From an uncultured Bacilli bacterium (GTDB lineage Bacteria; Bacillota_I; Bacilli_A; RF39; UBA660): 64,000 nt of DNA. Location of the stretch: assembly GCA_944363925.1 (NCBI GenBank), contig CALVVS010000001.1, forward strand, positions 450-64,449, written 5' to 3'. The notes beneath the pieces are model-generated. The model ran no database searches, was not told where the DNA came from, and saw nothing but the letters and a program-made list of their open reading frames with translations. The first letter of the stretch is position 1. Every line of letters starts with the position of its first letter. The position numbers and the translations under genes were made by a program. Positions 4,925 through 47,051 of this stretch are shown here, piece after piece.

Positions 4925-6649
4925 TTACATATCTCCAGTATCCTGCGGTTCTGTAGCCGTACCTTCTTCTGGTACCGGAACTTCAGGATTTTTAACTACT
5001 TTTATACGTAAATTAGCTCCTTTACTAACCTTACTACCTGCCTGCATATTTTGATACACAACCGTACCATTAGACTTCGTCGTATCTACAACTTCCGTCA
5101 CATTAAGCGTAAGTCCATGTTCATCGCAAAACTTCTTAACATCATCTTGAGTATAAGTTCCATCAGTAAAATTAGGATAACTTACATATATATTTGGAAT
5201 AACAAATGTAATCGTATCATCTTCACCAAGTTTTGTACCAGGTTTTACATCTTGCTCCAAAATAGTATTTTCTTTAACATTTTCATCCGTCGAAACATCC
5301 TTATAATCACTTAAAACCCGAATGCCCGCTTCTTCTAGCTCTTCTTTAACCTTATCAAAATCTTCACCAGTATAATCTTCTATTTCAATCTTCTCAGAAC
5401 CAGTCGAAATAATAAGTGAAACCGAAGAACCTTCCTTCAAACTCTCCCCAATCTCTGGGTCTGTACCAATAACCTTACCTTCTTCAACCTCGTCACTAGC
5501 CTCTTTCTTTCGCTTACCAGCAACTTCAAAGCCCTTATCTTCCAAAGTAGACTCTGCTTGTTTTACTGTCATACCTTGAACATCAGGAATATCTATATAA
5601 GGCTTTTCCGAAATCTTCGGCCATATTATAAACACAAATATAAGTGCCGCAATAAGTACTCCAACTATTGAACCCACAATAATAAGCGCCTTATTCATCC
5701 TCTTATCTTTCTTATTTTCACCTTTCTGCGCATTTCTAGCTGCCCTACCTTGTTTTGGCATACCCTCATCATCGTCAAAACCCTTTTCCTTATACTTATA
5801 TACTACCTTAGGCTCATTAAATCTATCCTTATCTAAAGCCGTTTCCAAATCTTCATGCATCTCATAAGCCGAATCATAACGGTTCTTTGGATTTTTAGCC
5901 GATGCTCTTAAAATAATATTCTCAATCGATTGTGGCATTTCTGGGTCGTATTCACAAATACTTGGAATTGGCTCGTTCATATGTTTAATAGCCACTTCAA
6001 CTGGATTGTCACCTTTAAAAGGCACATGACCAGTCACAAGCTCATACATCAAAATACCAAGTGAATATATATCACTTTTAATCGTTGCTGCCCCTCCATT
6101 AGCTTGCTCAGGCGGGATATAATAAACCGTTCCCATCACACTATTAGTCTGCGTAAATTCACCCGCATTAAGAGCCACCGCAATTCCAAAATCCATTATT
6201 TTAACTCTACCGTCTTCCAAAATAATCACATTTTGTGGTTTAATATCACGGTGAATAATATAACTCTCATGCGCATGCGCCACCGCACTCGTAAGCTGAA
6301 GCATAATATCCACAACTTCCGGTAAAGTAAGACTACCTCTTTTTTTAATAAGCTGTTTTAAAGTAAGACCCTGAACATATTCCATAACAATAAAATACTT
6401 TCCATTGTCCTCCCCAACATCATAAACCTCCACAATATTTGGATCATTTAAAGAACTAGCTGAAATAGCCTCCCTTTGAAAACGCCTAACAAACTTTTCA
6501 TCTTCAGCTAAATCACCTCTCAAAATCTTAACCGCTACTTTTCTATCCAAAATAGTATCCTGCGCTAAATAAACATTGGCCATACCACCTTCGCCAATAG
6601 ACCTAATAATTTCATAACGATCATTAATAAGTTGTCCCCTTGTTATCAT
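4925..6649 (-). CDS. prkC: Ser/Thr protein kinase with a transmembrane segment and three C-terminal PASTA repeats (PrkC/StkP family)
   Basis: Kinase motifs GEGGMANVY, VAVKIL, HRDIKPQNV, DFGIA. A TM helix (LIIVGSIVGVLIAALIFVFII) is followed by PASTA-like repeats. Confidence 0.9.
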   Translation of the reverse strand: MITRGQLINDRYEIIRSIGEGGMANVYLAQDTILDRKVAVKILRGDLAEDEKFVRRFQREAISASSLNDPNIVEVYDVGEDNGKYFIVMEYVQGLTLKQLIKKRGSLTLPEVVDIMLQLTSAVAHAHESYIIHRDIKPQNVIILEDGRVKIMDFGIAVALNAGEFTQTNSVMGTVYYIPPEQANGGAATIKSDIYSLGILMYELVTGHVPFKGDNPVEVAIKHMNEPIPSICEYDPEMPQSIENIILRASAKNPKNRYDSAYEMHEDLETALDKDRFNEPKVVYKYKEKGFDDDEGMPKQGRAARNAQKGENKKDKRMNKALIIVGSIVGVLIAALIFVFIIWPKISEKPYIDIPDVQGMTVKQAESTLEDKGFEVAGKRKKEASDEVEEGKVIGTDPEIGESLKEGSSVSLIISTGSEKIEIEDYTGEDFDKVKEELEEAGIRVLSDYKDVSTDENVKENTILEQDVKPGTKLGEDDTITFVIPNIYVSYPNFTDGTYTQDDVKKFCDEHGLTLNVTEVVDTTKSNGTVVYQNMQAGSKVSKGANLRIKVVKNPEVPVPEEGTATEPQDTGDM

Positions 6650-44988: not shown

Positions 44989-45621
44989 ATGATTAAATAC
45001 ATTAAAAATTATATAAATAAAGACCAAACATTTGATAAAAAAAGAAAATTAGCTATCATTTGTCTAATAATAGTCATATCAGGTATCTTTGGGTGGTTAT
45101 ATGAATTCATTTTTTATTTTTTTAATAGTGGCATGAAACAATTTTACTTTAGAGGTGGTAACTTCTTACCATGGATAAACATATATGCCATAGGAGCTGT
45201 TGCTATCTTTTTATTAACATATAAAAAGCGAAAACATCCATTATGCATCTTCTTAATAAGCATACTTGCTAGTGGCATATTAGAATATATTGGTGGCTGG
45301 TATATGGAAAATATTAATGGTGTCAAATGCTGGGACTATAATAAAGAAATACTAAATTTTGGCAACATCAACGGCTATGTTTGTCTAAGAAGCGTTTTAA
45401 TATTTGGTATTATGAGTTTACTTTTAATGTACCTAATAGTTCCCTTATGTTTTTATCTTGCAAACAAAATAAATAGAAAAACCTTCTTAATAATTAGTTA
45501 CACCCTATGTGCCATAATCTTAGCCGATGAACTATATAACCTAATATTTGCTAATCTCTTCTCTCTTCCAAGAGCATCATCCATATATAAAATGTTAGGT
45601 CTCAAATACCTTTATTTTTAA
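44989..45621 (+). CDS. Hypothetical polytopic membrane protein
   Basis: 210 aa with roughly 6 TM helices. RBS GGATGTGAG. Confidence 0.55.
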   Translation: MIKYIKNYINKDQTFDKKRKLAIICLIIVISGIFGWLYEFIFYFFNSGMKQFYFRGGNFLPWINIYAIGAVAIFLLTYKKRKHPLCIFLISILASGILEYIGGWYMENINGVKCWDYNKEILNFGNINGYVCLRSVLIFGIMSLLLMYLIVPLCFYLANKINRKTFLIISYTLCAIILADELYNLIFANLFSLPRASSIYKMLGLKYLYF

Positions 45622-45700
45622 AAAATGCACCATAATTCAAAAATATTGTGCATTTTTATCTTGACTTATACTAAAAATGCACAATCATAGTGCATTTTTA
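45620..45700. repeat. Operator-like unit L: palindrome AAAAATGCAC-N17-GTGCATTTTTA, TTGACT, then palindrome AAAAATGCAC-N7-GTGCATTTTTA. It overlaps the fic 3' end.
   Basis: Directly visible. It is a direct repeat of the unit at 46815..46895, about 80% identical. Confidence 0.85.
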
Positions 45701-46764
45701 CCGACAAATACATTATATATTTCCTCATATCTATAACCCAATTTAGTATGAGAAGAATCTTGAACCAATATTCCAAGATCTACCAATCTATCTACAATCC
45801 TCGAAACCGTATTTCTAGAAACACCAGACTCCTGAACTATTTCTTTTTTCGTAAATACAATTTGATGCATCATTGCCGGCATAACCCTATAAATAGACGT
45901 GCTTCTAAAAGACTTAACCTTTTCCATATCCCTATTAAATATTTGCTTTATCATCTTTATCTTAGCTATATAATTACCACACTGTTCAATAATACATTGT
46001 AAAAAAAACTTAATAAACCCCAGCATATTTCCTTTCCTACTCTCGTTTAAAAATTTATGATAACTTGGTTTATATAATTCTATAACTTCTGATAAGAACA
46101 AAATAGGTTCATCATCAGTTAAATTAGCTAATTGAATTGGAATAAGTGCTCTTCCTAATCTTCCATTTCCATCTCTATAAGCATGAATCGTCTCAAATTG
46201 CGAATGTGAAATAGCCATATTTATAAATATTGGATCTATAAAAGCATCATTCATATATTTAAAAAGATTATCTAAAAGAATAGGAACATCTTCTGGAATA
46301 GGTGGAACAAAAATAGCCTCACCAATACTACATCCCTTCGGACCTATCCAATTTTGAATATTTCTAACATGTCCAGGTTCCTTTTCATTTCCTCTCACAC
46401 TGTCCAAAAGTATTTTATGAATATTATTAACAAAAACTAAATTAATTTCATTATTTTTTTTCAAATATTCTTTAGAATAATCAATAACTTTTTTTAAATT
46501 TTGAATTTCCAAATTATCATCACTTTTAGGCATATATTTTAAATAATACATTTCATCTTGTGAAATTTGAGTACCTTCAATCTGTGTAGACTTCAAACTT
46601 TCACTAAGTATAATTGAATCTAAGAAAAACTTTGAATCAAATTCAACGTTTCTCAAGTATGTTTTATACTCTGCATATTTTGAATTTGCCTCTGCAAGTA
46701 ACCTAAGCAATTCCTTATCCATAACATAATCCACAGGTAATTTTTCAACTTTCATCGGTTCCAT
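45685..46764 (-). CDS. fic: Class II Fic (AMPylase-type) protein with a C-terminal winged-HTH domain
   Basis: Fic motif HAYRDGNGRLGR, N-terminal inhibitory helix STQIEGT ((S/T)xxxE(G/N)), C-terminal ..SGVSRNTVSRIVDRLVDLGILV.. Confidence 0.88.
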   Translation of the reverse strand: MEPMKVEKLPVDYVMDKELLRLLAEANSKYAEYKTYLRNVEFDSKFFLDSIILSESLKSTQIEGTQISQDEMYYLKYMPKSDDNLEIQNLKKVIDYSKEYLKKNNEINLVFVNNIHKILLDSVRGNEKEPGHVRNIQNWIGPKGCSIGEAIFVPPIPEDVPILLDNLFKYMNDAFIDPIFINMAISHSQFETIHAYRDGNGRLGRALIPIQLANLTDDEPILFLSEVIELYKPSYHKFLNESRKGNMLGFIKFFLQCIIEQCGNYIAKIKMIKQIFNRDMEKVKSFRSTSIYRVMPAMMHQIVFTKKEIVQESGVSRNTVSRIVDRLVDLGILVQDSSHTKLGYRYEEIYNVFVGKNAL

Positions 46765-46814
46765 AAAATTATCACCTCAATTAAAATATATCATAATCGT
46801 ATTAAAAAGTAAAT

Positions 46815-46895
46815 AAAATGCACAATATTTCAAAAATATAGTGCATTTTTACTGTTTTGTTGACAAAAAATGCACTATGATAGTGCATTTTTACA
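46815..46895. repeat. Operator-like unit R upstream of fic: AAAATGCAC-N17-GTGCATTTTTA, TTGACA, then AAAAAATGCAC-N7-GTGCATTTTTA
   Basis: Directly visible. A minus-strand fic promoter (TTTACT-17-TATATT, RBS GAGGTGA) lies just downstream. Confidence 0.85.
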
Positions 46896-46940
46896 GGTAA
46901 ATCTTTATTCTAAAATTAATATTAAGAAAATTTTAATAAA

Positions 46941-46968
46941 AAAATTTCCTTAAAATATAAGGAAATTA
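46941..46968 (-). terminator. Rho-independent terminator of the tRNA-Thr gene
   Basis: aatttcctta-tatttt-aaggaaatt hairpin plus T-run on the minus strand. Confidence 0.7.
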
Positions 46969-46977
46969 ATTACAAAA

Positions 46978-47051
46978 TGGTGCCGCAACGGAGAATCGAA
47001 CGCCGATTAAAGCCTTACCATGGCCTCGTAATACCTTTATACTATTGCGGC
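46978..47051 (-). tRNA. tRNA-Thr (anticodon GGU), CCA encoded
   Basis: Minus strand GCCGCAA..AGGCC-AUGGUAA-GGCUU..UUCGAUU..UUGCGGCACCA. 7-bp acceptor stem, T-loop TTCGATT, anticodon loop with GGT. Consensus promoter TTGCAA-17-TATAAT at 47054-47100. Confidence 0.7.

Follow-up and report, generated by a model that had tools for sequence, protein, structure and literature searches.

Fic proteins with a C-terminal winged helix are widespread (about 1800 proteins of this architecture are found in InterPro, according to the SoFic preprint, bioRxiv 10.64898/2026.07.09.737422), yet an operator has been mapped for CccR alone. CccR, a class II Fic protein with a helix–turn–helix (HTH) at its C terminus, represses its own promoter through AGATAATCAT-N26-ATGATAATCT (PMC9755527). 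SoFic, as a dimer, binds within its own upstream region of 100 bp (bioRxiv 10.64898/2026.07.09.737422), and DNA binding by CbFic2 switches its activity between AMPylation and deAMPylation (PMC10628234). The principle of autoregulation is, then, already known from CccR and SoFic. The locus described here lies in a 64,000-nt stretch of DNA, referred to as the window, from an uncultured Bacilli bacterium (assembly GCA_944363925.1, contig CALVVS010000001.1, positions 450–64,449 of the forward strand). It contains a fic gene bracketed by two direct copies of an 88-nt unit, each composed of two palindromes, P1 and P2. The new features are a defined composite candidate operator with one half-site at two spacings, the duplication of this unit around the gene, the recombination scars that remain after gene loss and the phage-moron setting.

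As judged from sequence, the unit is probably an operator for the winged helix of the adjacent Fic protein. Autoregulation through the TGCAC/GTGCA palindromes, suggested in an earlier note on the window, is the best-supported reading and a reasonably likely one; it is favoured by the conservation of the palindromes, their fixed spacing, their position relative to the −35 hexamer and the co-variation of their core with the recognition helix. The gene, its promoter and the two units are arranged as follows.

45685–46764, minus strand: fic, 359 aa (open reading frame list; Pfam; PADLOC; AlphaFold2 (AF2); Foldseek)
46815–46902, plus-strand register: unit B, upstream of fic (direct-repeat families D1 and D2; pattern matches)
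46819–46845: P1 of unit B, TGCAC-N17-GTGCA with A-run and T-run flanks (pattern match)
46871–46887: P2 of unit B, with the perfect 8+1+8 palindrome TGCACTATGATAGTGCA (pattern match)
45622–45709, plus-strand register: unit A, downstream of fic (repeat and pattern matches)
45626–45652: P1 core of unit A (pattern match)
45678–45694: P2 core of unit A, overlapping the fic stop codon (45685–45687)
46785–46813, minus strand: fic promoter, with −35 TTTACT (46813–46808), a 17-nt spacer and an extended −10 TGaTATATT (promoter scan)
46778–46772, minus strand: fic Shine–Dalgarno sequence GAGGTGA

Both units are in direct orientation, 1193 bp apart from start to start, and can be aligned without an indel. 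They share 70 of 88 bases (80%); the identity is 92% in the P1 part, 84% in the P2 part and 31% in the 13-nt linker. P1 has the form AAAATGCAC-N17-GTGCATTTT and P2 the form AAAAATGCAC-N7-GTGCATTTTT in both copies. The flanking repeats reported by the earlier note are confirmed as two collinear units, one upstream of fic and one overlapping its 3′ end. The pattern AAATGCAC-N(5-20)-GTGCATTT has four matches in the 64-kb window (45623–45655, 45675–45697, 46816–46848 and 46868–46890), while 0.00 are expected from dinucleotide shuffles. Allowing one mismatch in TGCAC-N7-GTGCA or TGCAC-N17-GTGCA gives no additional site in the 64 kb. All four palindromes are located at fic, and within the window the palindrome is not the ubiquitous repeat that the earlier note had named as a possible objection.

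An exact scan for TGCAC-N7-GTGCA-N20-30-TGCAC-N17-GTGCA, with one genome per species, gave at least 119 stretches. At least about 100 of these come from low-GC gut metagenome-assembled genomes (MAGs) labelled Bacilli, Tenericutes or Erysipelotrichaceae; the remaining ones are obvious chance matches in GC-rich phyla. Among the matches listed (118 units), 70 units adjoin fic, 46 of them immediately upstream of a Fic homologue (74–92% identity) and 24 immediately downstream; 46 have no fic alongside in the fetched tile, and 24 of these have at least 1300 nt on either side. The unit is also present at loci reached via the protein rather than the pattern (Ca. Onthousia L001–L006, L127, L131, L133 and L134). 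Of 45 complete fic loci, nearly all possess the upstream unit and about 22 possess the downstream unit as well; unit A is kept in every strain found of the window's species (L135–L142, L007). A dispersed intergenic repeat, such as a repetitive extragenic palindrome (REP), a bacterial interspersed mosaic element (BIME) or a MITE-like element (miniature inverted-repeat transposable element), was rejected for the window, given the four palindromes in 64 kb, all at fic, and the 70 of 118 listed units beside fic. Two circular MAG chromosomes each have one matching tile among the matches listed, which is indicative only. A comparison of the cassette DNA with known plasmids and cultured phages gave no match.

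Along the fic strand, the consensus of the family consists of aaaaaTGCACAATnATTGTGCAaaat, a variable linker and aaaaaTGCACAATATTTTnAAAATATTGTGCAttttt. All four half-sites of a unit are TGCACAAT, the same in P1 and P2, and the palindrome spacings seen are solely 7 (133 times) and 17 (135 times). The linker has a length of 24 nt in 59 units and of 25 nt in 57, together 116 of 118, where 20–30 nt were permitted; its sequence is free. The half-site cores are situated at about 0, 12, 41.5 and 63.5 bp, with a centre-to-centre distance of 12 bp in P2 and 22 bp in P1, and since the linker length is fixed, the four half-sites lie on roughly one helical face. The AAT/ATT beside the cores and the A/T flanks are conserved, though the scan did not demand them. 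An upstream unit with an additional P1 (P2-P1-P1) occurs in L133 (4081–4210 and 4206–5474 region), where an insertion of an ISL3-family transposase also splits the downstream unit inside P1.

In the window, the fic-proximal arm of P1 in unit B stops 5 nt short of the −35 hexamer. Among the listed relatives, P1 ends 5–8 nt before a sigma-70-type −35 of fic in 34 of 46 upstream units; of the 24 downstream units just 3, and of the 43 solo units just 6, have a promoter-like site after P1, the comparison covering the fic-sense side alone. The promoter consequently belongs to fic and not to the unit, and the fic promoter of the window (TTTACT-17-TGaTATATT) is located outside unit B. The formula proposed for the unit in the earlier note is correct as regards the two palindromes with N17 and N7; the TTGAC(A/T) placed between them occurs in both linkers but is not supported as part of the element, being 5–6 nt out of register between the copies. 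As a promoter within the unit, TTGAC(A/T) was rejected: it lies on the other strand from fic, unit B offers it no usable −10, and most relatives lack it. The antisense transcript suggested for the downstream copy likewise finds no support in the few promoter-like sites of the downstream units, which are on the sense side; in the antisense direction, the window has one weak match, TTGACT-16-AATCAT, whose TTGAC is not conserved.

The proteins encoded around the units form 493 clusters, and fic alone recurs beside the unit; no other cluster is widely shared. Five distant relatives (L261, L262, L264, L265 and L267) were compared with the window family, making six lineages. In each distant relative, a palindrome of the P1 type, in the order A-run, core, AT-rich spacer, core′ and T-run, either adjoins the −35 of that relative's fic or overlaps it. 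Listed below are the identity to the window Fic, the start of the recognition helix and the palindrome core.

Window family: 74–100% identity, start of helix GVSRNTVS, core TGCAC
L262 and L264: 62–65%, GVSVNAVS, core ATCAC
L265: 59%, EVSLNTTS, core CTCAC
L267: 63%, CLSEGTVS, core CCAC(A/G)G
L261: 45%, DVTIQTAR, core CTATAG

The Arg of the recognition helix is present together with a G in the core, and loss of the Arg accompanies loss of the G. The palindrome core thus appears to co-vary with the recognition helix, which is suggestive of Fic as the reader. The distance from the end of the palindrome to the −10 is 18 nt in L262, L264 and L265, so that the palindrome overlaps the −35 there. A second perfect palindrome of its own type is found in L267, 37 nt past the stop codon; as L267 has a palindrome on both sides of fic, the flanking arrangement recurs in a distant lineage. 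No comparable palindrome was found in the regions upstream of mloA in Streptococcus prophages, and the distant Fic of L098 (30% identity) lacks an upstream palindrome; the canonical unit that follows the L098 gene is uninformative.

The unit might also be read by another protein, a phage or host regulator, with fic merely adjacent. Phage contigs without fic carry the unit right after endolysin genes (L226, L235, L249 and L257), and in L224 and L242 it is found just upstream of phage genes; the 24 solo units of the matches listed that lack fic within 1.3 kb on either side fit this explanation as well. The recurrence of fic alone among the 493 clusters and the shift of the palindrome core with the Fic recognition helix in distant lineages make it improbable, however, as do the many solo units that are demonstrable scars of fic deletion (see below) and the binding of Fic–winged HTH proteins to their own promoters (PMC9755527).

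Another explanation concerns RNA. The unit folds with a minimum free energy of −21 to −29 kcal/mol (z −2.3 to −6.3), both palindromes forming hairpins, and the A-run before P1 and the T-run after it are found in upstream, downstream and solo copies alike. The downstream unit starts 2–25 nt past the fic stop codon in most loci with two units, and several tRNA genes lack any further T-run hairpin ahead of the unit. Perfect palindromes of differing sequence occur in distant lineages, with one on each side of fic in L267; the pairing is kept between distant lineages, not preferentially within the family. The units could, on these grounds, be RNA-level elements only: bidirectional intrinsic terminators that insulate a toxic gene against read-through from either side and have no protein reader. 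Several features render this rather unlikely. Most changes within the family affect one side only: among the 96 distinct P1 sequences, 236 one-sided changes that break pairing stand against 28 compensated ones, so it is the consensus that is kept rather than the stem. Independent terminators need neither a shared 8-nt half-site nor a fixed 24–25-bp linker. On the fic strand, P2 is followed in most loci by AAAAT, not by a T-run. Phage contigs place the unit between the endolysin stop codon and a separate, better terminator, and the P1 interior is no longer palindromic in them; a simple terminator scan calls nothing in this region of the window. A dual role of P1, as an operator and a terminator, is likely. 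A known RNA family was ruled out for the unit, the tRNA being the sole Rfam match in the region besides weak matches to rli40 and SpF41, which are far under the threshold.

In the operator reading, the 70-bp unit would be a composite protein-binding site with four TGCACAAT half-sites, a close pair in P2 and a wide pair in P1, joined by a linker of fixed length. Fic bound at P1, abutting the −35 of fic, would hold down its own toxic gene, in negative autoregulation as in CccR. P1, with its A-run and T-run, probably doubles as a hairpin terminator that blocks read-through from the tRNA into fic. The downstream copy may terminate fic transcription and serve as a further operator, in the role of a roadblock or of a looping partner; it appears to be dispensable, because about half of the complete fic loci lack it.

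A number of observations weigh against this reading. In the window family, P1 is located upstream of the −35 and not over the core promoter, which is less typical of a repressor and would also allow activation. The palindromes are good hairpins with T-runs, and compensated differences between distant lineages would also be expected of a conserved terminator. One rigid Fic dimer cannot fit the 12-bp and 22-bp spacings alike. Solo units are present in phage contigs and in genomes with no fic in the fetched stretch; there, the unit may have another reader or none. The comparison of helix and core covers six lineages that differ elsewhere in the protein too, and the invariance of TGCAC/GTGCA is partly ascertainment, as the scan required it.

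The unit might also be more than an autoregulatory operator, namely a sequence recognised by a toxin that senses DNA. Phages of the same hosts have unit-like sites in their genomes, behind endolysin genes and ahead of phage genes. A phage with such sites, whether incoming or induced, could draw Fic off the flanking operators or alter its oligomeric state; fic would be de-repressed and AMPylation switched at once, akin to CbFic2. The flanking copies would hold a silencing loop and would also let the population shed fic by recombination. This is a distant prospect, highly improbable at present.

The Fic protein consists of Fic_N (PF13784), the Fic domain (PF02661, E 1.5e-15) and C-terminal HTH families at aa 301–338, according to Pfam. 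Class II Fic proteins carry the inhibitory motif (S/T)xxxE(G/N) N-terminal to the Fic core in the same chain, and the active-site motif is HxFx(D/E)GNGRxxR. The corresponding codons of the window fic and those of the recognition helix are located as follows.

46573–46590, minus strand, within fic: inhibitory motif STQIEG
46150–46185, minus strand, within fic: Fic motif HAYRDGNGRLGR
45784–45825, minus strand, within fic: recognition helix GVSRNTVSRIVDRL

STQIEG (aa 59–64) is invariant in 30 homologues and is found in all five distant relatives too; HAYRDGNGRLGR (aa 194–205) is the Fic active-site motif with Tyr replacing Phe. The AF2 model has a medium overall predicted local distance difference test score (pLDDT) of 67, with 80–92 over residues 291–354, which form the winged helix (helices 291–301, 306–313 and 317–329, wing 333–346). 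The top Foldseek matches are 3ZEC, 3ZCN and 3EQX, with template modelling (TM) scores of 0.55–0.59; the closest structural neighbours are SoFic, 7CB8 (Mycobacterium marinum Fic), CccR (7XUX), Dde_2494 and CbFic2 (8CIL). The assignment made in the earlier note, a class II Fic protein with a C-terminal winged helix, agrees with both motifs, the Pfam HTH, the AF2 model and Foldseek. The three-part architecture of SoFic-type proteins (Fic_N, Fic core and winged helix) is present, and the match to the PADLOC SoFic model is full-length (E 8e-85); phrog_5978 is matched with E 7e-69. The NCBIfam SoFic equivalog NF046030 gives 92.9 bits against a cut-off of 550, which is not reached. By these comparisons, the protein is classed as a SoFic relative, not an equivalog. 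A SoFic-type AMPylating toxin or defence protein would be the best explanation of what the cassette encodes; an anti-phage role by abortive infection is putative, its basis being the PADLOC match and the prophage context.

The surroundings of fic in the window comprise a tRNA gene on one side and a convergent gene on the other.

46978–47051, minus strand: tRNA-Thr(GGT) (ARAGORN, Rfam)
47088–47060, minus strand: tRNA-Thr promoter TTGCAA-17-TATAAT (promoter scan)
About 46943–46967: tRNA-Thr terminator, a hairpin followed by a T-run (read from the sequence)
44989–45621, plus strand: convergent CmpB-like membrane protein gene (Pfam PF06541)

The tRNA-Thr gene and fic share their orientation; the tRNA 3′ end faces unit B, and the gap to the fic start is 213 nt. 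Its own promoter and terminator, described in the earlier note, are present. On the fic strand, the order is tRNA-Thr, terminator, P2–linker–P1, promoter, Shine–Dalgarno sequence, fic, P2–linker–P1 and the end of the convergent CmpB-like gene. Unit B is thus enclosed by the terminator of tRNA-Thr and the promoter of fic; unit A starts directly past the CmpB-like stop codon and fills the whole gap between the convergent genes. The CmpB-like gene bounds the cassette on its outer side and does not belong to it.

The locus L024 has the synteny of the window (CorA, CmpB, tRNA-Thr and PGM) with exactly one unit and no fic; the CmpB gene abuts this solo unit, and the same tRNA-Thr precedes it. The solo unit of L117, in a PolC/AraC-like context, is composed of the left flank, P2 and linker of the upstream unit of L031 and of P1 and the right flank of the downstream unit; in L126, the crossover point is farther to the right than in L117. 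These loci show directly that the two direct copies recombine, which deletes fic and leaves one chimeric unit. The crossover points differ and no recombinase gene is nearby, pointing to homologous recombination. The units as a cassette boundary, one of the proposals of the earlier note, are borne out by the single unit without fic at the same site in L024, L117 and L126, and the comparison it had called for, of fic beside tRNA-Thr in relatives, finds fic absent and one unit left in L024. Occupied and empty sites are found in at least five genomic contexts, that of L024 included. Many contigs with close Fic homologues are just 1.2–1.5 kb long, and one measures exactly 1193 bp; these are probably assemblies that break or loop at the flanking repeats.

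The fic clades track the genomic context. In L160 (6060–6250), a fic pseudogene fragment (aa ~77–135, with stop codons) is located between tRNA-Thr and CmpB, with no unit and with a PGM that is 77% identical. An empty site was not found within the species of the window: all eight contigs with an identical CmpB protein carry fic. In L137, which belongs to the same species, the P2 of the upstream unit (unit at 5831; window 46871–46887) reads TGCACGATGATTGTGCA, near the downstream P2, suggesting gene conversion between the two units. The clades by context, the decay in L160, the species-wide presence of fic and the conversion in L137 fit loss rather than gain. A metagenome scan with the PGM neighbour returned mostly distant genomes (37–52% identity) without the tRNA, L160 and L146 being the only informative ones.

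At about 25 distinct loci, an RNA gene has its 3′ end 30–100 nt ahead of the unit, always in the same orientation; the RNA genes are tRNA-Thr, Leu, Arg, Glu, Gly and tmRNA. The connection to tRNA hotspots drawn in the earlier note holds, then, at the level of the family. One tight clade has a segment of 1.31 kb, made up of a leader hairpin, the unit, fic and a trailer of 78 nt with CACCA at its end, that is 93–95% identical in DNA and is found behind four RNA genes (tRNA-Thr, tRNA-Arg, tRNA-Leu and tmRNA) with unrelated flanks. It begins directly past the CCA end of the RNA gene and is carried by L014, L021+L068, L073, L085, L115, L120, L122 and L127 (L021 1–1292; L127 2840–4160). This segment looks like an integrase-less integrative cassette. 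Its conserved 78-nt element, ending in ...CCTTACTGGCACCA, follows the fic stop codon in L021 (1215–1292), L115, L073 and L127; on the minus strand of L229 (13288–13365), it is located upstream of the unit, with a TATAAT box ahead. The CCA-ending trailer was rejected as a tRNA, ARAGORN and Rfam being negative and its fold no better than that of shuffles (z −1.7); the element may be what is left of an att site, or a small RNA.

Site-specific recombination would be another way to account for these sites: the units would be att-like or dif-like sites for a recombinase encoded elsewhere, the fic cassette would be excised and integrated there, and the solo units would be empty sites. The occupied and empty sites in at least five contexts, the resemblance of P2 to a core site with inverted arms around 7 bp, the constant orientation at about 25 tRNA or tmRNA loci and the 1.31-kb clade behind different RNA genes are in its favour. 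Yet the genes flanking the units are housekeeping ones, with no recombinase gene next to the units; the crossovers of L117 and L126 differ, as homologous exchange predicts, and near-perfect palindromes give no direction. The clade behind various tRNAs lacks a downstream unit and is bounded by CCA sequences rather than by units. The adherence of fic clades to context points to vertical inheritance; L160 shows fic decaying at the window's site through a different type of deletion, and 8 of 8 contigs of the window species have fic. Site-specific recombination is, on balance, very unlikely, and homologous loss of fic is the preferred explanation.

The viral contig L223 has the order endolysin, terminator, unit, promoter, fic and unit, and viral contigs also show solo units immediately after endolysin genes. 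In prophages of cultured Streptococcus, a Fic homologue, "MloA", is located between the lysin gene and the attachment site; S. pyogenes phage 315.2 (L260, NC_004585.1 38482–41072) contains a lysin gene, the Fic homologue SpyM3_0921 (annotated as hypothetical), the superantigen gene ssa and att at tmRNA. An independent transcription unit between late or lysis genes and the attachment site, which characterises a moron, is found in both L223 and phage 315.2. In the window, no phage gene remains and the cassette is situated between housekeeping genes. The cassette is best described as a prophage moron that stayed at a tRNA site or moved with phage ends.

Some fic loci have further peculiarities. 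In viral contig L229 (minus strand), fic (321–956) is cut after about aa 201 and is followed by a 523-aa large serine recombinase (947–2518); a prophage appears to have integrated into fic. In Ca. Onthousia, a gene for a 169-aa coiled-coil protein with no family match (L001 7136–7645; also L008 and L046) is located between fic and the downstream unit; the protein could be a partner or antitoxin of Fic. The region downstream varies there by sample, with a Y1 transposase insertion or a pair of NUDIX and zeta-toxin-like genes. Antitoxin-like genes with a SocA/Panacea domain adjoin fic cassettes in two unrelated lineages (L223 4273–4728, minus strand, and L265 1–944); in L265, this domain is fused to an MqsA-like domain. 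L265 also contains, at about 2300–2400, four direct repeats AATGTCGGT(T/A)T between fic and a DUF3791/DUF3990 pair.

The locus offers a sharply defined, well-conserved candidate operator for a large family of SoFic-type toxins of gut bacteria and phages. The natural variants, with parallel changes in the DNA core and the recognition helix, make a recognition code testable. The locus also illustrates how a gene for a toxin or for defence can form an insulated, portable cassette that is easily lost through its own regulatory repeats, and it accounts for a class of 70-bp orphan palindromes at tRNA genes and prophage ends.

Spaced repeated operators of one repressor, with several sites per region, are known from lambda OL–OR, gal OE–OI and lac O1–O2. 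The copies in the window differ in bracketing a whole gene, 1.2 kb apart, and in the absence of the second copy from about half of the complete fic loci; looping between the two units is purely conjectural. With prophage morons located between lysin and att (phage 315.2, NC_004585), the cassette shares its own promoter and terminator, the position after an endolysin gene and the proximity of a tRNA or tmRNA att; a Fic homologue occupies precisely this position in phage 315.2, and the order in L223 is similar. The Streptococcus homologues, however, have 27–31% identity and no comparable palindrome, and the window has no phage genes.

SoFic/MloA of Shewanella oneidensis (3EQX, 3ZCN) has the same three-part architecture and is the best fold and PADLOC match. 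SoFic is toxic, its dimer binds its own upstream 100 bp, and it functions in abortive-infection defence (bioRxiv 10.64898/2026.07.09.737422; PMC12249575). The differences are an identity to the window Fic of about 21% (Foldseek), the score of the window Fic below the NCBIfam equivalog cut-off, the small antitoxin gene (AS1), which is missing behind the window fic, and SoFic's lack of a defined operator sequence or reported flanking repeats. CccR of Yersinia pseudotuberculosis (PDB 7XUX; PMC9755527) is also a class II Fic protein (S59ARIEG) with a C-terminal HTH, found to be similar to the window Fic both by sequence (E 1.9e-9) and by fold; toxin and regulator are in one chain, and the CccR dimer binds long-spacer inverted repeats in its own promoter. 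CccR, unlike the window protein, is a type VI secretion system effector of a proteobacterium, and the Foldseek identity between the two is 17–18%. In CccR, the operator consists of two 10-bp boxes 26 bp apart, close to the −35 and −10, whereas the window has two palindromes upstream of the −35, their spacers measuring 7 and 17 bp, and a further complete unit after the gene.

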